Positions 3,782 through 63,191 of a stretch of 64,000 bases of DNA are shown here, in pieces. The position numbers and the translations under genes are program-made. The notes beneath the pieces were generated by a model, which did not search any database, was not told the DNA's origin, and was given only the letters and a program-made list of their open reading frames with translations. Every line of letters begins with the position of its first letter. Position 1 is the first letter of the stretch. Where the stretch lies: sequence record NC_052655.1, one strand, 5' to 3'. Source of the DNA: Escherichia phage alia.

Positions 3782-4729
3782 TTAGAAACAGTGCAGGAAG
3801 TTTCGACCATACTGCAAACCAATAGGAGCAAATGGGATATCATCATCGAAATCTTGAACAACAGGTTCTGGTTCTTTCGGTGCTGGCTCTTTCTTCTCTA
3901 CTTTTTTAGTTTCTTTCTTAACTTCTTGTACCGGGGTAGACATTCCACGGATAGCAGCAGCTACTTTATCAGACAAAGCAAGAACTTCACGAGCAGCTTC
4001 AATAATCTCTTCTGCCGTTACAGTTTTACCTGTATGATCACGACAAGCGTTAAGAATTGCGTGTCCAACTGAAGCACCAAGATCATAGTCAGTCACATCA
4101 ACGCCACGATCTTTAGCAATTTCTGCTTTCAGAGTAACAGTTGCAGATTGTACCACACCAGCCAAGTCGAAAGCATCACCTTTCACACCAGCACGTAGAA
4201 GCTCCAGAGCGCCGTTTACAGCGTGTCCTGTTTCAATCCCTACGGTATCACGTTTTTTGTAGTTAGGCTTGCTACCTTCGTTATTAGATGGCTTATTTCC
4301 ACCTTTTGAAGAAGATTGTGCTTGCTGAACACCTTCTGTTGAAAGAATAGTGATTTTACCTTTAGAGGAATTGTAGTATGTTTTGCCATTCCATTCAGAA
4401 GGTTTAACATCCATAGTTAGTTCTACACCTTTTTCGATAGTAACCCACTTATCACCATCTTTAACTTGCAGGTTTTCATGTTCTGGGTGCAGTTTAACTT
4501 CACCTAGGCTAACCCAAACACCTTTATCATCAGCACCAGCACCTTTCTCTTTAATAAGCAGGGATGCTTTGTGAGTTGATTCAATTTTCTTATCTGGCTG
4601 ACCTGCAACCTTAATATAAGAGACTTTCATTTCATCAAACTTATCCAGTTTGACATATTCAACGATACCTTCAGCCCAGAATGCTTCTTTTTTAGTACGA
4701 CGGTCGATTTCAGAATTAATTACTGGCAT
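3782..4729 (-). CDS. SSB-like protein with acidic 'DFDDDIPF' motif
   Basis: 'QDFDDDIPF' matches the E. coli SSB C-terminal tail, but here it is followed by 15 more residues; the N-terminal region is not obviously an OB fold. Confidence 0.45.
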   Translation of the reverse strand: MPVINSEIDRRTKKEAFWAEGIVEYVKLDKFDEMKVSYIKVAGQPDKKIESTHKASLLIKEKGAGADDKGVWVSLGEVKLHPEHENLQVKDGDKWVTIEKGVELTMDVKPSEWNGKTYYNSSKGKITILSTEGVQQAQSSSKGGNKPSNNEGSKPNYKKRDTVGIETGHAVNGALELLRAGVKGDAFDLAGVVQSATVTLKAEIAKDRGVDVTDYDLGASVGHAILNACRDHTGKTVTAEEIIEAAREVLALSDKVAAAIRGMSTPVQEVKKETKKVEKKEPAPKEPEPVVQDFDDDIPFAPIGLQYGRNFLHCF

Positions 4730-4745
4730 AAATTCTCCTCTATAA

Positions 4746-5144
4746 TTACATTACTTTAACACAAAACTCTCGTAAAAGAGTAGCGTCAGTTTCTTCCAAC
4801 AGGTATTTACCAAGACCAATACCAAATCCTATTTCACCACTTTCGAAATGGAGGATTTGTATCTTTTCTCCACCAAGGTTAATTACTTTTGCTTTTCCAG
4901 GATTATCCAAAACATCTCGTATTGTATCCTGTAGTAGCATTAGTTCACGCTTTGTGATAGTGGTTTCAGATATCTCTTTGTTTTCTACCCTCACTGTTAA
5001 ACGATTGTATCCACCAAAGAGACATAGTATTTGAATAAAAAAGGTATTATCTTGAGGTTCAACATCTTTTTTAGTTAGCTCAAGACGATTAGTTTCTCTA
5101 CTGTAGAACGTCTCGACTAAGATTTTAGAACGATTATCTGTCAT
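4746..5144 (-). CDS. hypothetical protein
   Basis: 132-aa ORF, same strand, tight spacing. Confidence 0.5.
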   Translation of the reverse strand: MTDNRSKILVETFYSRETNRLELTKKDVEPQDNTFFIQILCLFGGYNRLTVRVENKEISETTITKRELMLLQDTIRDVLDNPGKAKVINLGGEKIQILHFESGEIGFGIGLGKYLLEETDATLLREFCVKVM

Positions 5145-5187
5145 TCAAGTCCTCATAATAACACATAATTATAATGTTTGTCAACAC

Positions 5188-5802
5188 TTAAATCTTAAAT
5201 TCTTCGTTGTTAAATGAATCCAGTGTACGTACTTCTGGTTCTTTGGGAATGAAAACGTCTTTTACAAAGCGGAACATAGGGAAACGTTCTGCCATTTTAC
5301 GGACGTGTGCTTCTTTACCTGTGTATCGGTGATTAATAGTGCAAATATTAGTTTTCAATGCAAAGTCAAAATCTGGATGATATACATAATTTTGACCATC
5401 CCAGTAACACAAGCAAATAGCTACATCAAAGTTCCATACGATTTCACTGCGTACACCTTCTTCCATGATCATAAAGTTAAACTTAAGATCTTTATAGTAT
5501 GCTTCAAATACCCATTTCAAATGTGGTAGTTCGGCATAAGTGTGTTCTGTTTGCTTAGTAAGTTGTTTAACATTACGTGCACCAACACCCAACATCAAAA
5601 ATTTCTCTACTAGTACGAGTGTATTGTGGTTAGGCATACGCAAGTAAATGTCAATATCTTGCGCAGGTTTCTCTAATCGCCAGTCACGTACAGCGCCGCC
5701 AGCTACAATTGCAAACGGATCTACCAGTTGGCACATACGTAATACTTCTAAAGCTCGTACTTTTTGATCTTCAATATTCATATTTTCTCCTATCGTGTCC
5801 AC
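5188..5802 (-). CDS. putative Pol-beta-type nucleotidyltransferase (CCA-adding/poly(A) polymerase head-like)
   Basis: 'VAGGAVRDWRL...DIDIY' resembles the GGxVRD...DxD head motif of the tRNA nucleotidyltransferase family; only 204 aa. Confidence 0.4.
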   Translation of the reverse strand: MDTIGENMNIEDQKVRALEVLRMCQLVDPFAIVAGGAVRDWRLEKPAQDIDIYLRMPNHNTLVLVEKFLMLGVGARNVKQLTKQTEHTYAELPHLKWVFEAYYKDLKFNFMIMEEGVRSEIVWNFDVAICLCYWDGQNYVYHPDFDFALKTNICTINHRYTGKEAHVRKMAERFPMFRFVKDVFIPKEPEVRTLDSFNNEEFKI

Positions 5803-6386
5803 TCTTTATGTTGTTCTACATGCTCAAGCATTTCATTATACAGTGCTTTAAGATGTGGAACAACTCTTTCATCTTCAGTTTCAAAGAATTTTGTAAGCTG
5901 TTCTGCCTTAGCTTTCAACCAGCAAAGATGCGCTTCAATTTCAGTATTAAAACGTCCCAGTGTTATAACACGTCCATCACGTTGAATATGGGCTTTATAC
6001 TTTTTACGATCTTTTTCGTAACTACATCCTACCATAGTCCCATGAGATCTTTTACTTACTCTATAAGCTAAGAACTTGTTAAGATCTCCTGTTACTAAAA
6101 GACAGGTATCGGGAGAGTAAACTCTCCCTCCTATAATATCTTTATCAAGTTCTAAGTTTTCCCAGTTATCCCAAGTTTGCAACCAGGAGTAGAAATTGGA
6201 GAACAGTTTCCATTCTTCACAAACCGTCACCCCATTATAACAAGGATCACGTTCTTGTTGACAAGGGGAGTAACACCTCCCCAACATAGCCATCCATTTC
6301 ATATAATGCGGCGTTAGTTTCTTACTACCAGGTAGCGTACTCTCGCCTTCCAAATCATTAATACCTTCACCATATACGGTAAGCAT
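5790..6386 (-). CDS. AP2-domain protein, homing-endonuclease-like
   Basis: 'YKAHIQRDGRVITLGRFNTEIEAHLCW' resembles the AP2 DNA-binding domain common in phage HNH homing endonucleases; sits directly upstream of the DNA polymerase gene. Confidence 0.5.
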   Translation of the reverse strand: MLTVYGEGINDLEGESTLPGSKKLTPHYMKWMAMLGRCYSPCQQERDPCYNGVTVCEEWKLFSNFYSWLQTWDNWENLELDKDIIGGRVYSPDTCLLVTGDLNKFLAYRVSKRSHGTMVGCSYEKDRKKYKAHIQRDGRVITLGRFNTEIEAHLCWLKAKAEQLTKFFETEDERVVPHLKALYNEMLEHVEQHKEWTR

Positions 6387-6413
6387 AAAAACTCCTTTAA
6401 AATCAAAGAGATG

Positions 6414-8993
6414 TCAGTGACAAGACGCCCATGAGTTACCAACATCGTAACCAGCAGTGAGAGGTACATTAAGATTGTAATACTCACCAGCTTTATTAAC
6501 AGCGATAGATGCTAATTCTCCAGCACGACTGTAGGCTGTAAACCAACCACCTTTCGGAGATTCATGTACGTTAGCCCAAATCTTGCCAGTACGTTTCTCT
6601 TCCTCTTCTTTCCAGGCATTAACTTTATCCAAACATTCTTTATCAATTTTCTTTTGTTCTTCTGGATCATCAACTTGAGTCCAACCTAAAGATTCTTTAG
6701 AGAACCATTTAAAATGCACTAGATCACGAGTAACTTCAAGCTGTGCTTCATCGTGATATGCAATCATTTGTTGAACGAATGACTTATTTTTCCAGTCATC
6801 AACAAAAAAGTCAACAGCTAATCCTTCTTCTTCGATAAGATCGTCGTAGATAACCATTGCTCTTTTTGCACAAATAACACCACCACTCTGGAACAGAGAG
6901 TTAAGTATTGCGTGTGCAGATCGTGTAGGTACTTTCCTACCATCAATACCAAGAATGTATTTCTTACCTGTTTTAACCCAAAAGTCATGCAGACGTTCTT
7001 TAAGAAGCGCAAGAGGTTTTGCAGCTTCCCAGAAAGCATCGTATACAAGCTGTCCTGTATACATATCACTACCTATAGTTTTTGCTACTTTTGCAGCTTG
7101 AGCACCATAAGTAATACCATACTTAACAGATTTAGCAGGGCTTCGTTCAAACTTACGACCAATAGTGTCAGAAATACGTCGAGCCATCATTGTATGAACA
7201 TCATTAGGTTTTTCCAATAATAGAGCATTACAATATTCGTGTGGTTCCTGCTCGTACCGCCAACAGTAGTGCGATTCTATTTTTGCCTCAAGAGAATCAA
7301 AGTCATAACCAATTTGGAAGTATTTTGGAACTTCTACACCAAATAAGTTACGCATTTCATATCCGTACAGAGATGTTACACGTGGGATATTTGCTACTAA
7401 CCTATGTTTCATACGAGACGTAGCTGCATCACACGTTGCAGCAGGAGTTGGTATACGACCATCAGCCCTTACTGCTGCCAGATAACCTTTATCGTAATCT
7501 TCTTCATCTTCTTCCCAATCAGCACCACCCCCTAGAATAGAGTTCCTACGGTGTTTATACGTAAGATACTGCACAATCTGCGTAGCATAAGGAAACTTTT
7601 CACCTAGTGCTTCCAAGTTAGGACAAATATCTTTCTCTTGCCCTTTTGTAAAGGAAGGGTTAGTAAGCACTTTAACACCACGACCTTTAGCTTTAGCAAT
7701 ACGATCTCTTAGTTTCCATTCCAAAGTTTCTGGTGTGCACTCCAGATGATCACATCTGTCCTGGCAAAAGTTAGATGCTAACGTTTGATCAACATAATCA
7801 CGAATAGCTTTCTCCATTTGTGCTTCATCTTTCTTAATCTTAGTGCCAGATTTAAGAGTGATATCTTTATCTTTATATTCAGATGGACTCCAACCTAAAC
7901 CAACTAACCAGTTTTTAATATGTGTAGTGTCGTCTAAAGTAGCAGGTACTGTAGGATCACAAATAGGTTCTTCTGCTGGAATAGGTAGTTTAAACTCTTT
8001 ACCTAGTGCAAATAACCACCAACCATCTTCTTTTTGTACAAGTTCACCAGAATGTTTCTCTGCAAACTTTATCATGTTACTTGAAGGTTCACCATTCTTT
8101 TTAAACTGTAGTTTAGGTGGAATGAATGATTTCAAATAACCTTTAGTAGCAGGTTTAGGAGGTAGCACAGGTTCTGCCTCTAAACGACATGCTTCCATTC
8201 GAGCATCCAGATCACGAATATTATCTTCTGCTTGTTTCATGTTGAAAGCAAAGCCACGGTGCTCTTGACGTGTAATAATATCAGCTACACGTTGTTCTAA
8301 GTTAAATGGTTCAGACCACTTATTATAATCACCCCACTCTTCCATCAAATAACGGAACACTGCGGTGTTAGCTTTGTTATCGTAAATACAGTAATACAGC
8401 ATATCTGCTGCAAATGTTTTAAATCTTTCAGTTTCAGGAATGTTTTTTCTAAAATCAATTTTAACATCCCCTCCAGCTTTCTTAGATAACTCTGCCAGAC
8501 TATGACCACCGAAGCGATCAGGGTTTAGTGTCTTACTTAAGATCATAGTATCACAAATTTCAATGTTACTATTACCCCAAGTATTGTACTTAATACTGTA
8601 GTTGAGTTTAAAAAATAATTTAATTGCCAGTAAGTCAAAGTTAATGATGTTATGTCCAACTACTTTGGTAATTTTATAGTTTGAATTACCTTTAAATTTA
8701 CCTGTTCCATTTACAAAATCAGGAAAATCTTTAAGAGGGAAATGGGTATATTCTAAATGCTCATATTCCTCCAGTCGGTATTCATACTTTCCGTCAGTCT
8801 CAACATACGGACGACCATCGAAAAGATATTTATCACCATCATGGAAAGCAATAATCTCTCCAGTATCATGACTTTCGCACACAATACAGTGCATTGCAAA
8901 ACTATCTTTTAAACGATATGGACTTGCCAAGTAATCTACACTTTCGTCATTAAGCAAGTTGTTACTTTCAATGTCGAAAGTAAAAGCTCCCAT
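6414..8993 (-). CDS. DNA polymerase, family A, with N-terminal 3'-5' exonuclease
   Basis: 'FDIES' (exo I), 'DFDSLEAKI' (motif A-like), 'KSVKYGITYGAQ' (motif B) and 'YHDEAQ' (motif C); 859 aa; AAGGAGGG RBS. Confidence 0.9.
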   Translation of the reverse strand: MGAFTFDIESNNLLNDESVDYLASPYRLKDSFAMHCIVCESHDTGEIIAFHDGDKYLFDGRPYVETDGKYEYRLEEYEHLEYTHFPLKDFPDFVNGTGKFKGNSNYKITKVVGHNIINFDLLAIKLFFKLNYSIKYNTWGNSNIEICDTMILSKTLNPDRFGGHSLAELSKKAGGDVKIDFRKNIPETERFKTFAADMLYYCIYDNKANTAVFRYLMEEWGDYNKWSEPFNLEQRVADIITRQEHRGFAFNMKQAEDNIRDLDARMEACRLEAEPVLPPKPATKGYLKSFIPPKLQFKKNGEPSSNMIKFAEKHSGELVQKEDGWWLFALGKEFKLPIPAEEPICDPTVPATLDDTTHIKNWLVGLGWSPSEYKDKDITLKSGTKIKKDEAQMEKAIRDYVDQTLASNFCQDRCDHLECTPETLEWKLRDRIAKAKGRGVKVLTNPSFTKGQEKDICPNLEALGEKFPYATQIVQYLTYKHRRNSILGGGADWEEDEEDYDKGYLAAVRADGRIPTPAATCDAATSRMKHRLVANIPRVTSLYGYEMRNLFGVEVPKYFQIGYDFDSLEAKIESHYCWRYEQEPHEYCNALLLEKPNDVHTMMARRISDTIGRKFERSPAKSVKYGITYGAQAAKVAKTIGSDMYTGQLVYDAFWEAAKPLALLKERLHDFWVKTGKKYILGIDGRKVPTRSAHAILNSLFQSGGVICAKRAMVIYDDLIEEEGLAVDFFVDDWKNKSFVQQMIAYHDEAQLEVTRDLVHFKWFSKESLGWTQVDDPEEQKKIDKECLDKVNAWKEEEEKRTGKIWANVHESPKGGWFTAYSRAGELASIAVNKAGEYYNLNVPLTAGYDVGNSWASCH

Positions 8994-9083: not shown

Positions 9084-9479
9084 TTATTTATTGTCAGCAC
9101 TTAGTTGTACTTTAATAAGGCAATTAGGGACACCATTGGTATTTCTCAAGCCTACACGTTCAATTTTAACAGTGCCTGTCAAACCATTAAAAGTGGAAAC
9201 AATGTTATTAATGTTTTCATCCTTACTAGTGATATCAAGAATAACTTTATCACTGACATTTTTCAACATACGATCTACAAGCTCTCCCACAAAACCACTG
9301 GTAGTTTGAATGAGAAGGTATAGACAACCATCCTCAAACCACAAATGTTCACCATAAGCATAACCGTATGGTTCTAATTCCGATCCATCTTGAAATTTAA
9401 ACTTAGCAATAGTTTTCGTATAATCATACGCTAAAGCAGAAGGGCATACCCCATAGAGGATATTTTCGTTGTCTTTCAT
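9084..9479 (-). CDS. hypothetical protein
   Basis: Track ORF 9084-9608 overlaps the primase-helicase; start moved to internal Met 'MKDNEN' at 9479. Confidence 0.4.
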   Translation of the reverse strand: MKDNENILYGVCPSALAYDYTKTIAKFKFQDGSELEPYGYAYGEHLWFEDGCLYLLIQTTSGFVGELVDRMLKNVSDKVILDITSKDENINNIVSTFNGLTGTVKIERVGLRNTNGVPNCLIKVQLSADNK

Positions 9480-9489
9480 ATTTTTCTCC

Positions 9490-11262
9490 TTAATAAGAAC
9501 CAGCAGAAATATTTTCTGGGTTACTCGTGTATTGATCGTAATCGTGAAGTGTAGCTGTTTTAATCTCATAGAAGAAACTACCTGCTGCACCAGTCTCTGA
9601 GAACTCACGGTTCTTTAGAATGTAGCAATATGTGCGGTTACGTTCCATAGGATCTTCAGCTTGTTTATCACGCTCCAGCGCAATTGTGATACCAGCACCT
9701 TTAGCAAGGAAGCTACTACCCATTGCATCATCTTCTACAATATGTTCATTACTATTGTTAGAAGACTTTTTAACGTGTGAAATTACAACAATGGTTATTG
9801 CATACTCTTTCATAATGCGTTTGAGCCACGTCGCAAGTTCCTCTTGTTGTGACACGTCCATACCAGAAAGCAAGTCAGAATAAGGGTCGATAACAAGAAT
9901 GGTTACTCCGAAATAAATAATCATTTCCAGAACCTTCTCTTTAATCACATCTACGTTAGCTCCACGATCATCACAAACATAGAAACGTGGTGTTCCATCT
10001 TCTCGTTCGTAAAAATCACGAATCTTTTCTTCATTATCTTTTAAAATCTTTTCCTTCTCTTCTTTTGTTTTACGGTGAAGAGGGATGTGCAAGAATGAAG
10101 ACAGTAAGTTACGAGAATACTTCTTATACGTTGCCTCCAAAGATAAAATACCAAGAGTATGTTCTGGGTGTGCAAGAATAATGTGCTTCGTAATCTCGTT
10201 AACCAACAGTGTCTTACCAATACTTGTTTTTGCAAGTATAACAGTAATTTCTTCTTCTACCAAGCCTCCACCTAACATATTAGAAGCAACACGCATGAAT
10301 GGAGGAAGGGTGATCATTTTAGCTTCCAGGCATTCCAAGGCTGCTTCATACAGTACGTTAGAAGCGTAAACACCAGCAGGTGTGTACAGTTTAGCTTTGA
10401 AAAAGCGATCAATAAAATGATCAATTTTTCCTTCTACTAGTGCCTGGTTAGGATCTTTAACATCCGTTAGTTCCATCACGTAAACTTTATTACGTGGTAA
10501 GATTTTAACACATTTCTCAACTGCTGCACGTCCAGCTTCATCATTATCCATACATAGAACAATCTTTTTAAATTGATCTAAGAATTTATAACGATGTTGA
10601 AGCTGCTTATGCAGAGATGTTTCGCCACAAGTACCAGATACTACAGCAGGAACAGGATATTTACCACCCTTGTTATAATCTTTTAGCATCTGTGTTGCAG
10701 CCAGCATATCGTGTTCACCACCAACGATTAGAATAGTACCGCTGTGGTTACGATATTTAAACTCCCCAAAAAGATCACAATCCTTTCCTGTTTCACCGAT
10801 AGGATGTGAGAAATCTTTTGGATCGATACGTTGTTTATACCCAGCAATATTGTAATCTTTAGTTGTAGGGTATAGTGTTGAAATTACTTCGCCAGTAGCT
10901 TCATCGTACATATAACGTACACCGAAAGGCTTAGAGATATCTTCACGAATACCGCGATAACCTTTTGGATTAGTTCCAGTGCTGGCTTTTAGTTTATCAT
11001 GTACTTCTGGATTAAACTCACTACCCAAGATATCCTCCTCTTCAATTTCTTCGCCGTGTGCATTTAACCATTTTTGATCAGGGATAGTAAAGCCACAAGA
11101 AAAACAATGTGCGCCTCGATGGTCTTCATCGGCATCTAAGCCATATACCATCAAATTGTTTTGTGATCGATCACGCCCTCCTTTCATACAACGAGGACAC
11201 CCAGTATGTCCTTCTTGACTTAGATCAATGTTATACCCATATTTATTTACAACATAAGACAC
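9490..11262 (-). CDS. primase-helicase (T7 gp4-like: zinc ribbon, TOPRIM, DnaB-like helicase)
   Basis: Cys4 element 'CPRCMKGG...CFSCG', TOPRIM-like 'IVLCMDNDEAGRAA', Walker A 'LAKTSIGKT'; 590 aa. Confidence 0.85.
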   Translation of the reverse strand: MSYVVNKYGYNIDLSQEGHTGCPRCMKGGRDRSQNNLMVYGLDADEDHRGAHCFSCGFTIPDQKWLNAHGEEIEEEDILGSEFNPEVHDKLKASTGTNPKGYRGIREDISKPFGVRYMYDEATGEVISTLYPTTKDYNIAGYKQRIDPKDFSHPIGETGKDCDLFGEFKYRNHSGTILIVGGEHDMLAATQMLKDYNKGGKYPVPAVVSGTCGETSLHKQLQHRYKFLDQFKKIVLCMDNDEAGRAAVEKCVKILPRNKVYVMELTDVKDPNQALVEGKIDHFIDRFFKAKLYTPAGVYASNVLYEAALECLEAKMITLPPFMRVASNMLGGGLVEEEITVILAKTSIGKTLLVNEITKHIILAHPEHTLGILSLEATYKKYSRNLLSSFLHIPLHRKTKEEKEKILKDNEEKIRDFYEREDGTPRFYVCDDRGANVDVIKEKVLEMIIYFGVTILVIDPYSDLLSGMDVSQQEELATWLKRIMKEYAITIVVISHVKKSSNNSNEHIVEDDAMGSSFLAKGAGITIALERDKQAEDPMERNRTYCYILKNREFSETGAAGSFFYEIKTATLHDYDQYTSNPENISAGSY

Positions 11263-26475: not shown

Positions 26476-27636
26476 TTAGTAAGAACGACCACCAAACACA
26501 TACTCTGTGTAGTTTTTACGTTCTTTGTTTTTAATAACAACTTCAATGTTGTTACCTTTATCATCGGTGAACATAAAGTGATAACCGTCACCACCCATTG
26601 TACGGATGTGTTTTTCATCATACGTCAGCAAGATACGGTCTACACCCCAGTAGTAGTCACCTTCTTCATCTTTATCTTCTACGGTAACAATCCCTTCCAT
26701 TTCAGGAAGATGCTCTTCACCTAGTTTATGGTCTACAGCTACAACATAACGATTACCGCTAAACAAACCTTGTGCTGTCATACCGTCAATATCGGTATCT
26801 GCCGAAACATCTCCTGTACGATCTACACCGTTAACTTTCAGAAGTTTAACCTCTTTTGCAGCATAGCGGTGTTCAGTAATACTGATACCCATTAATGCAA
26901 GTGCATCAGAGAATTTGTCATTAGGATAACGGTTAAGTTCTTCTACTAATGACTGAACAATATCAAAGTTCAAGTCCACGGACAGATTATAAAGCGTTTC
27001 AAAATCTGGTAAAAAGGCTTTGTTCTCCAGATTTTTAGCCAGATAATCATCCATAGTAGCTTTAGGTAGTTTCTTATAGCTAAAGCTGTAGAAAATACGG
27101 CTAGGGCGATTACGCAAAAATTCTGATACATAACCATCATTTTTAGTCAATACAAACAGCTTGTCATAGCCACCAACACCATCCAGCAGGGTAAGCAAAC
27201 CATCCTGTGCATCTTTTTCAGCATACAGTTTATCAAATTCATCGATCATAATCATCACAGGTTGTGTGATTTTAGACATAAAATTGATAAAGCCTTCACC
27301 ATTAAAAGCACTACCGATAGAAATAGTAGGAATACCCATTTCACGAAGAGCAGAAGACAGCATTTTAGCTTGCAAAGTTTTACCGCTACCCTTCGTACCC
27401 TCAAGGAGAACACCTGTGTTTTTACCTTTGCGGCTAAGGAACGTCTTGATAATACGTTCTGATTTATCATCAGTATCACCGTATGTTACTGAAGGGACTT
27501 CCATATCGTTTTTAGGATACAGGAAGAACTCACCACTTTGAGTAACACCTACACCAAAAGTTCCTGCTGGAATTTCTTCGATATCTGTACCAGACTTCTG
27601 ACGCAGGAAGATTTGATTGCCGAATACTGTAAACAT
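26476..27636 (-). CDS. P-loop NTPase (AAA-like), paralog A
   Basis: Walker A 'GTKGSGKT', Walker B 'MIMIDEFD'; about 50% identical by eye to the plus-strand ORF at 41617-42744. Confidence 0.7.
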   Translation of the reverse strand: MFTVFGNQIFLRQKSGTDIEEIPAGTFGVGVTQSGEFFLYPKNDMEVPSVTYGDTDDKSERIIKTFLSRKGKNTGVLLEGTKGSGKTLQAKMLSSALREMGIPTISIGSAFNGEGFINFMSKITQPVMIMIDEFDKLYAEKDAQDGLLTLLDGVGGYDKLFVLTKNDGYVSEFLRNRPSRIFYSFSYKKLPKATMDDYLAKNLENKAFLPDFETLYNLSVDLNFDIVQSLVEELNRYPNDKFSDALALMGISITEHRYAAKEVKLLKVNGVDRTGDVSADTDIDGMTAQGLFSGNRYVVAVDHKLGEEHLPEMEGIVTVEDKDEEGDYYWGVDRILLTYDEKHIRTMGGDGYHFMFTDDKGNNIEVVIKNKERKNYTEYVFGGRSY

Positions 27637-27656
27637 AGTTTTCTCCTCTATTTAAT

Positions 27657-28127
27657 TTAGTCAGATTCCCAAATGTTGTCTTTCTTAATCCACATTCGTT
27701 GATTATCTGAACCTCTATAACGTTTCGTTGTTGGTTGATTCATATCATACTTACCATCTATCACTATGTCAACCAGTTTTTTAATTTTTTCTGGAATTTC
27801 TTCAAAAAGATATCCTGTATATAAGACAATATCTTTTTTGTTTCCAAAACAATCTCTTACCTTCTCAAGAACATACTCTACAGTGTCAATGTTCTCTTTG
27901 TCAAGAGGTTCACCACCTAAAACTGTTAATCCTTTAATGAAAGGTCGAGATAAATCTTTCAAGATAAGATCTAATGTTTCAGTAGTGAACTCTTGTCCGT
28001 AGTTATACGACCAGGCTTTCTGGTTGAAGCAGCCACGGCAACCGTGGCTACAACCGCTCACCCACAAAGAGCATCTTACACCGTCACCGTTGAGCATGTC
28101 AACAGGTTCATATCCGGCATAATTCAA
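27657..28127 (-). CDS. nrdG: anaerobic ribonucleotide reductase activating protein (radical SAM)
   Basis: 'CSHGCRGC' radical-SAM CxxxCxxC cluster; 156 aa; immediately downstream of NrdD. Confidence 0.8.
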   Translation of the reverse strand: MNYAGYEPVDMLNGDGVRCSLWVSGCSHGCRGCFNQKAWSYNYGQEFTTETLDLILKDLSRPFIKGLTVLGGEPLDKENIDTVEYVLEKVRDCFGNKKDIVLYTGYLFEEIPEKIKKLVDIVIDGKYDMNQPTTKRYRGSDNQRMWIKKDNIWESD

Positions 28128-62371: not shown

Positions 62372-62716
62372 ATGTTAGCTGATATTGAAATCCTTATGTA
62401 CCGACAAGGTATGATCAAAATGTGGCTAGATTCTTTTAGCAACATATACTGCACAGTACGATCAGCAGACGAGCGTAAAACGCTTATTTTATCTGCTATT
62501 GTTGATAAACAACGTTTCTTCAAAGAAATTTTGCAAACAGGCTTCTCCGATGCAGGAGTAGAGATTGCAACGCTTAGTCTTGGAGTGCTGTCTTACTTGG
62601 AATCCGTTGTTTTATATGTCTTCTCTTTAGAAGAACACTTGCAATTTGAAGCATTAAAACTTATCTTAGATGCTGCAATTGACATAGAACAAAATCGAAT
62701 TGATTCTTTTGAATAA
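62372..62716 (+). CDS. hypothetical protein
   Basis: Start 'MLADIEIL' with a GGAGAGGAGAAA RBS. Confidence 0.45.
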   Translation: MLADIEILMYRQGMIKMWLDSFSNIYCTVRSADERKTLILSAIVDKQRFFKEILQTGFSDAGVEIATLSLGVLSYLESVVLYVFSLEEHLQFEALKLILDAAIDIEQNRIDSFE

Positions 62717-62732
62717 AAATAAGGAGGAAACT

Positions 62733-63191
62733 ATGCAAGAGGTTAAACATTATCCACATGGTCGTAGTTTTGTAGCTGTATGGCATGTTCCTGCTCGTAA
62801 TGAACTATTTTGTGCATCTTTTCATTACAAAGATGGACAATATTTCACCTATGACGAAACGATGGATGATTTTATCCCAGAGTGCGATCATGGGTATACA
62901 CCAATGTTCTTTAAACGTATGAAAGCTCGTTTCTTCGTTACAGATGTTGATGGTGAACCTACTTGGCACATCGAAGAAGATTGGCAAGATTCTGTGGATA
63001 TTAAAGAAGCCCCAGAATGGGCTACATTACTGGTACACGTCAAAACCCCTACTCTTGACGTTATGGCGTGGGTTAATCATGATGATACCCATTACCAATA
63101 CATAAATGGTAGCACAGAGATTTCTGGTGAGATTATTGGTCGTTGGAAGCCTACGAATCAGGTTGCTATTGTCGGGTATAAGACAGTATAA
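62733..63191 (+). CDS. hypothetical protein
   Basis: Start 'MQEVKHYP' with an AAGGAGGAAA RBS. Confidence 0.5.
   Translation: MQEVKHYPHGRSFVAVWHVPARNELFCASFHYKDGQYFTYDETMDDFIPECDHGYTPMFFKRMKARFFVTDVDGEPTWHIEEDWQDSVDIKEAPEWATLLVHVKTPTLDVMAWVNHDDTHYQYINGSTEISGEIIGRWKPTNQVAIVGYKTV

Follow-up and report, generated by a model that had tools for sequence, protein, structure and literature searches.

A homing-endonuclease-like gene and a probable Gad2-family nucleotidyltransferase gene beside the DNA polymerase gene of Escherichia phage alia

The window analyzed here is a 64,000-nt stretch of Escherichia phage alia (NC_052655.1), and its subject is a pair of small genes next to the DNA polymerase gene: one for a 198-aa protein with an AP2-type domain (the AP2/HNH-like gene) and one for a short nucleotidyltransferase of 197 aa. 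Both are real genes, because each has an AGGAG ribosome-binding site (RBS), a strong PHROG match and hundreds of homologues; they are functionally unrelated and lie in the replication module. The best joint explanation, which we hold to be probable, is a homing-endonuclease-like gene of the IPA-HNH type next to a core Gad2-family nucleotidyltransferase gene with a counter-defence role. Both genes fall in families that are already in the literature and in Pfam. Three things are added to the existing labels: a link between Gad2 and the nucleotidyltransferase, the finding that Lys invariably stands for His in the HNH-like centre, and a fine-scale view of how alleles vary and decay at the locus.

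The source phage is a phi92-like coliphage (genus Justusliebigvirus, subfamily Stephanstirmvirinae), and in this region it shares 99% identity with Escherichia phages ESCO8 and VEcB and about 98% with phi92. All genes of the stretch are on the minus strand, and transcription runs from primase/helicase through a phi92 gp160-like gene, the family A DNA polymerase, the AP2/HNH-like gene, the nucleotidyltransferase, a gp157-like gene and a gp156-like gene (single-stranded DNA-binding protein-like, SSB-like) to a DNA methyltransferase. An earlier reading made from the letters alone (the sequence-only reading) had located the two open reading frames (ORFs) correctly, at 5188-5802 and 5790-6386, and had placed them upstream of the polymerase gene; both are on the minus strand and, given the order on that strand, lie downstream of it. 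The 204 aa that it gave for the nucleotidyltransferase had also to be shortened. The GTG at 5802 is not conserved, with an in-frame TAA in its place in phi92, and the start is the conserved ATG at 5781, annotated in phi92 as well as in RefSeq, which yields 197 aa. With the start at this ATG the two genes no longer overlap, and the 13 nt of apparent overlap came from the choice of the longest ORF. The AP2/HNH-like gene ends with its stop codon inside the RBS of the nucleotidyltransferase gene. In GenBank, both genes are mostly labelled 'hypothetical', and RefSeq labels them 'HNH endonuclease' and 'nucleotidyltransferase'.

Searched as a single sequence, the AP2/HNH-like protein had no AP2, HNH or HNH_3 match in Pfam at E<=1, and a single-sequence search of the PDB gave nothing significant for either this protein or the nucleotidyltransferase. 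A family profile of 42 members matched the solved plant AP2/ERF domains (WRI1, E 3.5e-6; ERF096, E 0.0037). The AlphaFold2 model of the protein (pLDDT 92.6, lower for residues 11-20) folds residues 121-164 into three strands and a helix, and AP2 domains were the best, if weak, PDB matches of the model in Foldseek (E 0.09, prob 0.96). Many phage proteins in a library of viral predicted structures share the fold over its whole length; their names vary between DNA-binding, AP2 and HNH homing endonuclease. The C-terminal AP2-type domain is thus confirmed as genuine at the level of profile and fold, as the sequence-only reading had supposed.

We read the N-terminal domain, tentatively, as derived from HNH, with an invariant Lys in the place of the general-base His, because the Asp and Asn positions and their spacing are kept and N103 is anchored by hhalign. 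Residues R37, W59, D81, K82, D83, Y90, S91, C95 and N103 are invariant in the 42 aligned homologues, and the predicted secondary structure of the core consists of strands at 78-81 and 96-99 and a helix at 100-106. When set in register by eye, the core of Klebsiella phage KP34 gp19 (D73-H74...N86...N95) corresponds to D81-K82...T94...N103 with the same spacings of 12 and 21 residues. KP34 gp19 carries HNH_3, matched at 6.9e-16, together with AP2; the ICP1 homologue of the 198-aa protein, like the protein itself, has no Pfam HNH_3 match, and an hhalign comparison of the family with a second HNH_3-AP2 protein, from Curvibacter, found nothing. PHROG 953, the family that the protein matches, is labelled 'HNH endonuclease'. 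The 103 homologues gathered are mostly about 200 aa long and without a Pfam domain, a few having an extra zinc-ribbon, DUF723 or weak AP2 match. With no Pfam HNH or HNH_3 match and Lys at the catalytic His position, the 'AP2/HNH' of the sequence-only reading was an overstatement.

By sequence similarity, the 198-aa protein belongs to the published IPA-HNH family. The family was described in ICP1 (gp59, gp115-116 and gp209) as a divergent HNH domain invisible to Pfam HNH_3 followed by AP2 (Barth, Dunham & Seed 2023, PMC10448857). In BLASTP, our protein matched ICP1_2006_B ADX88704 with 33% identity over 178 residues (E 1e-23). The published survey counted 431 genes from 240 phages, found 29% of the genes next to a DNA polymerase gene and proposed that they are homing endonucleases, which bears out the earlier remark that genes of this kind often sit next to polymerase genes (PMC10448857). 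The survey does not discuss Stephanstirmvirinae, and ECGD1 (Justusliebigvirus) stands in its supplementary tables under a different gene. A tblastn search located the family 2515 times in 1466 phage records, with as many as 7 copies in a genome and two places in ICP1 genomes.

The distribution of both genes was counted in 54 Justusliebigvirus records, among them some GenBank/RefSeq duplicates. The AP2/HNH-like gene is intact in 26 of these, reduced to a common deletion remnant in 27, and cut by an independent deletion in one. VEcB and PaulScherrer (Bas60) are among the phages that carry the gene, and phi92 and muut among those that lack it. In the common remnant, which is 137 nt long, the RBS, the start codon and 83 nt at the 3' end survive at only ~75% identity, while the independent case, phage outra, has a separate, clean internal deletion of 448 nt in an allele that is otherwise 99% identical. 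The flanks are ~99% identical to the window equally in phages with and without the gene. Where the flanking genes are 97-100% identical, the AP2/HNH-like gene is 87-89% identical. A homologue stands at the same position in Phapecoctavirus and in one Klebsiella relative, and across genera the gene keeps 77-84% identity, compared with 36% for the nucleotidyltransferase, 56% for gp157 and 66% for SSB. In two Phapecoctavirus genomes, flanks of 97-100% identity on both sides enclose a tract of 70-78% identity that takes in ~100 nt at the end of the polymerase gene, the AP2/HNH-like gene and ~150 nt beyond. Within Justusliebigvirus, the first allele-variable patch covers the N-terminal segment of the protein and runs on into the intergenic spacer and the last polymerase codons, and the second covers codons ~123-143, which form strands 2-3 of the DNA-reading AP2 sheet. 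Taken together, the gene is dispensable and has decayed more than once, its alleles have been replaced along with part of the essential gene next to it (co-conversion), and its DNA-binding surface looks retargeted, all of which would be expected of a selfish nuclease gene. By its distribution and recombination tracts, the gene fits a free-standing homing-endonuclease-like element; it looks like an ancestral resident of the site that has been lost repeatedly and has exchanged alleles, and not like a recent insertion.

The nucleotidyltransferase very probably belongs to the Gad2 family, as judged from profile comparisons. A precomputed Pfam match, PF26128.2, was available for protein P0001, which is 100% identical to the window protein, and PF26128 is named Gad2 in the gene tables of related contigs. 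Since tblastn searches from long family members did not reach the SPbeta phages, the link to Gad2 itself was made by comparing profile with profile. The family profile matched the single sequence of SPbetaL7 Gad2 (OQ921347.1) in hhalign with a probability of 89.6% (E 1.9e-6), and a 7-member profile of the Gad2 N-domain with a probability of 97.6% (E 4.7e-12, 114 columns), window residues 22-152 aligning with Gad2 residues 25-141. In this alignment the Gad2 invariants A30-G31-G32, D45, D47 and F105-D106 fall on A27-G28-G29, D42, D44 and F118-D119. Gad2 (Gabija anti-defence protein 2) is a 400-aa protein of Bacillus phage SPbetaL7 with a predicted nucleotidyltransferase domain; its knockout renders SPbetaL7 sensitive to Gabija, and the protein is toxic when expressed (Yirmiya et al. 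2023). Short forms occur within the Gad2 subfamily too (205 and 214 aa), one of them between nuclease and SSB genes in a Streptococcus phage.

The GGAVRD...DID motif pointed out in the sequence-only reading is present: numbered from the ATG, residues 27-34 read AGGAVRDW, followed by D42-I-D44. In the first part of the protein the conserved residues of the window's own subfamily (62 members) are Q6, A10, D21-P22, A27-G-G-A-P-R-D-W34, A40, D42, D44, Y46 and G67, and in the second part Y82, E93 (acidic in 47 of the 62, 76%), F118, C123, F138, Y153, K162 and F167-P168.

In all 54 Justusliebigvirus records, the nucleotidyltransferase gene is present in a single copy with 97.5-99.5% amino-acid identity, with or without the AP2/HNH-like gene; it is a core, vertically inherited gene and not a mobile one. 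The patchy distribution that the sequence-only reading had proposed as support for mobility was accordingly found for the AP2/HNH-like gene and not for its syntenic neighbour. Syntenic homologues occur in Phapecoctavirus (36% identity) and in Klebsiella phages (~50%), and further homologues in Vibrio, ICP1, Curvibacter, cyanophage and T7-like phages. A first, word-indexed homologue search returned 2 clusters only, and exhaustive and profile searches were needed; the profile search brought at least 186 homologues, the exhaustive search gave 990 clusters, nearly all of stand-alone proteins of 180-220 aa, and IMG/VR contributed 2 related loci only. The longer family members have extra N- or C-terminal regions with no recognizable fused domains. 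In unrelated phages, the homologues recur beside primase/helicase, polymerase, ligase, thymidylate synthase or SSB genes. The ICP1 homologue (locus L009, 4001-4369, ORF223) matches query residues 3-126 only and is annotated as one short ORF or two, depending on the isolate; it is possibly truncated or frameshifted.

Two short phage nucleotidyltransferases have been reported as toxic on overexpression: Emajogi gp22, called a Gad2-family nucleotidyltransferase in a preprint, and fHe-Kpn01 Gp22, which has the same motif positions and serves as a lead only. No homologue of fHe-Kpn01 Gp22 was present in the region of KP34 inspected. By analogy, such toxicity is consistent with an active enzyme.

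Other identities of the nucleotidyltransferase were compared. The Pfam PolyA_pol head scored 19.8-19.9 bits against a gathering cut-off of 23, and the NCBIfam equivalog for CCA-adding enzymes scored 14.9 bits against a cut-off of 290. The 62-member profile matched solved CCA-adding enzymes in the PDB over motif A only (E 0.02), and hhalign aligned it with E. coli Cca over 24 motif-A columns only. Because only motif A matches, the protein is not a CCA-adding enzyme; with all scores below their cut-offs, a CCA-adding enzyme or poly(A) polymerase was rejected. A toxin-antitoxin-type minimal nucleotidyltransferase (the MNT of HEPN-MNT) was rejected as well, with no NTP_transf_2 match at E<=1 and no defence-system match in PADLOC. 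The sequence-only reading was thus right in assigning a nucleotidyltransferase with a weak PolyA_pol head link, and its 'minimal nucleotidyltransferase' of the NTP_transf_2/MNT kind has to give way to Gad2, the closest characterized relative, which it did not consider. Of the profiles it had named for searching, PolyA_pol head stayed below threshold, NTP_transf_2, AP2 and HNH had no single-sequence Pfam match, and AP2 emerged with the family profile.

We propose the following course of events for the AP2/HNH-like gene, for which we infer the nuclease activity and the target site. The AP2 domain, probably together with the variable N-terminal arm, would recognize a DNA site; in a mixed infection, the HNH-like centre D81/K82/D83...N103 would nick or cut genomes without the gene near the junction of the polymerase and nucleotidyltransferase genes; and recombinational repair would then copy the gene across along with adjacent markers. 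After fixation, the gene would be dispensable and could decay by deletion. For the nucleotidyltransferase, we infer the enzymatic activity, the substrate and any anti-Gabija role. With Mg2+, D42 and D44 (plus D119 or E93) would either extend a nucleic-acid end by a nucleotide or form a nucleotide product, and the product or modification may blunt a host immune system, such as Gabija, for which DNA ends or nucleotide levels are the signal. By analogy with Gad2, counter-defence would be the most likely role of the protein, although the assignment is a tentative one that draws on one distant characterized relative. A bolder extension, which we consider unlikely, would make the short Gad2-type nucleotidyltransferases a general counter-measure and the IPA-HNH Asp-Lys-Asp an active Lys-for-His variant of the His-Me finger. 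Being phage-restricted, with ~1000 clusters, and located in replication modules, the Gad2-type proteins may cap or tag DNA ends or nicks, or may make a decoy nucleotide, so that Gabija-like immunity is not triggered.

For the AP2/HNH-like gene, the chief alternative is a domesticated or inactivated relative that only binds DNA, acting as a regulator of phage or host genes or as a silencer of a defence locus. We take it as a serious rival, though a doubtful one, and rate it above the alternatives for the neighbouring gene. The Lys at the catalytic His position in 42 of 42 aligned homologues and the missing HNH and HNH_3 profile matches are as expected of such a protein, and phage AP2 proteins can be pure DNA-binding anti-defence repressors, as in the CasPRs that silence cas genes. 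The gene is also syntenic across genera, several relatives are annotated 'DNA-binding protein', and the variability of the AP2 strands would fit the retargeting of a repressor equally well. However, D81, K82, D83 and N103 are invariant down to 30% identity and keep the HNH spacing, which points to a conserved active centre; spread in several copies, repeated deletions and a recombination tract with the gene at its centre are what typifies selfish nuclease genes; and the CasPR architecture is a different one, a CapR zinc finger with AP2. The two genes could, on another account, form one mobile cassette inserted beside the polymerase gene, as their adjacency and the AP2-gene stop inside the nucleotidyltransferase RBS might suggest. 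This is refuted by the distribution, the nucleotidyltransferase being present throughout Justusliebigvirus at nearly constant identity whatever the status of its neighbour; in Phapecoctavirus, moreover, three small ORFs lie between the two genes and the divergent tract ends before the nucleotidyltransferase. We give the cassette almost no chance.

For the nucleotidyltransferase, a stripped-down CCA-, A- or poly(A)-adding enzyme, engaged in repair or maturation of tRNA 3' ends or in tailing host RNA for decay, would agree with the many database annotations as 'tRNA nucleotidyltransferase/poly(A) polymerase', with a motif A (GGAVRD...DxD) of the class II CCA/poly(A) type and weak PolyA_pol head matches in 12 of 62 family members, and with the toxicity of overexpressed Emajogi gp22 and, if it is a family member, fHe-Kpn01 Gp22, as expected of promiscuous RNA tailing. 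This is improbable in our judgment: besides the scores below the family cut-offs and the end of similarity after motif A, the 197-aa protein is without motifs B-E and without the neck, body and tail, the parts by which CCA addition is templated and the tRNA is held. The window has no tRNA genes, and the closest characterized homologue is an anti-defence protein and not a tRNA enzyme. A replication or recombination accessory with no part in defence, such as a terminal transferase with phage DNA ends, nicks or primers as its substrate, strikes us as just as improbable. Unrelated phages do carry family members time and again among polymerase, primase/helicase, nuclease and SSB genes, and the gene is strictly core and single-copy in Stephanstirmvirinae, but early accessory and anti-defence genes cluster in such regions too, the anti-Gabija effect is the only experimental datum for the family, and most phages that have a similar replisome lack it.

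Several results weigh against the combination of a homing-endonuclease-like gene and a Gad2-family counter-defence gene. In the AP2/HNH-like protein the canonical HNH motif is absent, Lys standing for the catalytic His in every aligned homologue; the N-terminal 115 residues had no PDB fold match in Foldseek; the hhalign alignment of the family with KP34 gp19 runs from N103 into the AP2 domain only (E 8.6e-5); and nuclease activity has been shown for no IPA-HNH member, the 198-aa protein included. The synteny in two genera and a Klebsiella phage also fits an old resident gene with occasional loss. The nucleotidyltransferase is only a remote homologue of Gad2, with ~24% identity in the 114 aligned columns; at 197 aa it has no counterpart to the last ~250 residues of the 400-aa Gad2; and D119, the candidate third carboxylate, is kept in only 15 of the 62 members of the window's subfamily. 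The structure model, built from a 2-sequence alignment, is poor (pLDDT 57); its N-terminal half matched Pol-beta-fold transferases in Foldseek, in a generic way. Klebsiella phage 05F01 (LC483177.1, Stephanstirmvirinae) carries a long Gad2 homologue of ~460 aa at 26695-28077 as well as the short type at 62689-63186; the two are therefore paralogous branches, and their function may differ. The mechanism of Gad2 itself was listed as unknown as of February 2026.

The coordinates of the two genes and of their surroundings are collected in Table 1.

Table 1. Features of the phage alia locus, in order of transcription (positions of the window)
Feature	Positions	Strand	Basis
Family A DNA polymerase, 859 aa, no intein; 3' end adjoins the AP2/HNH-like gene	6414..8993	-	Pfam DNA_pol_A 3e-13; PHROG 17 1.2e-111; = phi92 gp159
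AGGAG RBS of the AP2/HNH-like gene, 5 nt before the ATG	6392..6396	-	Sequence read; RBS and ATG still there in phages without the gene body (phi92 remnant)
AP2/HNH-like gene, IPA-HNH type by similarity, free-standing, 198 aa	5790..6386	-	PHROG 953 8.5e-74; 103 homologues of ~200 aa; ICP1 match
Hypervariable N-terminal segment, codons 1-27, first allele-variable patch	6306..6386	-	Mismatch bins, protein alignment, lower pLDDT
Predicted beta-beta-alpha core of degenerate HNH-like domain, codons 78-106 (LELDKD...YSPDTC...LNKFL)	6069..6155	-	Invariant columns, predicted secondary structure
AP2-type DNA-binding domain, codons 118-165	5892..6035	-	Family profile vs PDB, Foldseek, model
AGGAG RBS of the nucleotidyltransferase gene, overlapping the AP2-gene TAG stop (5792-5790)	5787..5791	-	Sequence read; RBS annotated in phi92
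Short nucleotidyltransferase, very probably Gad2 family (PF26128), 197 aa, = phi92 gp158, core gene	5188..5781	-	PF26128 on identical protein; hhalign; PHROG 1614 1.5e-34
Motif A, codons 27-46 (AGGAVRDW 27-34...D42-I-D44-IY): Gly-Gly turn, two metal-binding Asp	5644..5703	-	Column conservation, PDB profile matches, hhalign
Codons 118-120, F-D-V, aligned to Gad2-subfamily invariant F105-D106-F107; candidate third carboxylate	5422..5430	-	Profile alignment
Promoter-like site TTGACA-18 nt-TATTAT, TG ahead; 11/12 consensus matches	5155..5184	-	Consensus match only
phi92 gp157-like protein, 132 aa, function unknown	4746..5144	-	PHROG 16560 7e-76; synteny
phi92 gp156-like protein; some relatives annotate single-stranded DNA-binding protein	3782..4729	-	PHROG 4477 2e-101; weak SSB-tail match

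The gp157-like gene was always directly 3' of the nucleotidyltransferase gene in the subfamily Stephanstirmvirinae when synteny was compared. The promoter-like site occupies the 43 nt that separate the nucleotidyltransferase stop from the gp157-like gene; in total, the region has no more such sites than shuffling leads one to expect. As a near-consensus sigma-70-type site, it suggests that a new transcription unit, with the gp157-like and SSB-like genes, may begin here; past the SSB-like gene, at 3759-3740, there is a terminator-like hairpin. A second copy of either gene was not found in the window. At the other side of the polymerase gene, the ORF at 9084-9608 (minus strand, GTG start, 174 aa) overlaps the end of the primase/helicase gene, and its PHROG match covers residues 44-174 only; the real start is probably internal, phi92 gp160 being 131 aa, and the overlap is then an artefact.

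The polymerase gene itself is interrupted by a 735-bp in-frame intein in phi92, PaulScherrer, SD2, PD06 and others, and none is present in the window polymerase (compare locus L001, 2720-6034, and locus L016, 3106-3840); the intein is a second mobile-element polymorphism in the polymerase gene. The Phapecoctavirus polymerases have a different, larger insertion in roughly the same region, seen as a divergent block at sense positions 1650-2900. In Klebsiella phage KP2025 (locus L004, 4562-7543), the polymerase is annotated in pieces with a gap of ~480 nt (5335-5813), which suggests an intron, an intein or another inserted element. Curvibacter phage P26059A (locus L008, 4566-8167) has a nucleotidyltransferase homologue followed by two canonical HNH_3 genes, which flank a primase/helicase gene, before a family B polymerase, and is another replication module dense in homing endonuclease genes. 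Four GenBank records named 'Campylobacter phage', MG065639 (A150), MG065645 (A145), MG065656 (C3) and MG065689 (A110a), are 98-99% identical to phi92-like coliphages at this locus, and their attribution to the host Campylobacter jejuni looks doubtful.

Neither gene's result overturns current understanding. The practical gain is a better annotation of the phi92-like phages, which have a broad host range and are relevant to therapy. The nucleotidyltransferase provides a compact 197-aa core protein, very probably of the Gad2 family, in easily handled E. coli phages (e.g., BASEL Bas60-62), which could help to solve the chemistry of Gad2. The AP2/HNH-like gene provides a natural series for the study of IPA-HNH cutting and homing, with intact alleles that differ in their DNA-reading strands and with one old and one fresh deletion.

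Compared with known systems, the nucleotidyltransferase resembles the class II CCA-adding and poly(A)-adding enzymes in its Pol-beta fold and motif A (GGxVRD...DxD), and differs from them in that nothing past motif A aligns and that no RRD, EDxxR, neck, body or tail is found in its 197 aa. With Gad2 it shares the Pfam family, the AGG turn, the DxD, the FD(x)(S/T)(I/V)C motif and the restriction to phages, and reported relatives are toxic on overexpression. Unlike Gad2, it belongs to a distinct paralogous subfamily with a signature of its own (GGAPRDW, Y82, Y153, K162 and FP167-168), and its gene is a core gene in the replication module and not part of a variable anti-defence locus. The AP2/HNH-like protein agrees with the canonical HNH_3-AP2 homing endonucleases (the class of Magnani et al. 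2004; KP34 gp19) in the order of its domains and in the 12/21 core spacing followed by AP2, whereas it has Lys for the catalytic His, Thr for the middle Asn, no Pfam HNH_3 match, and an extra helical N-terminal region of ~75 residues (Y..W..M..RC...W..F). It is most like the IPA-HNH proteins of ICP1: both are about 200 aa long, with a C-terminal AP2 domain behind a divergent N-terminus that Pfam HNH_3 does not detect, described as HNH in ICP1 and putatively HNH-like here, and both are encoded by free-standing genes beside a DNA polymerase gene that are patchy in close relatives and lie at the boundary of a recombination tract.

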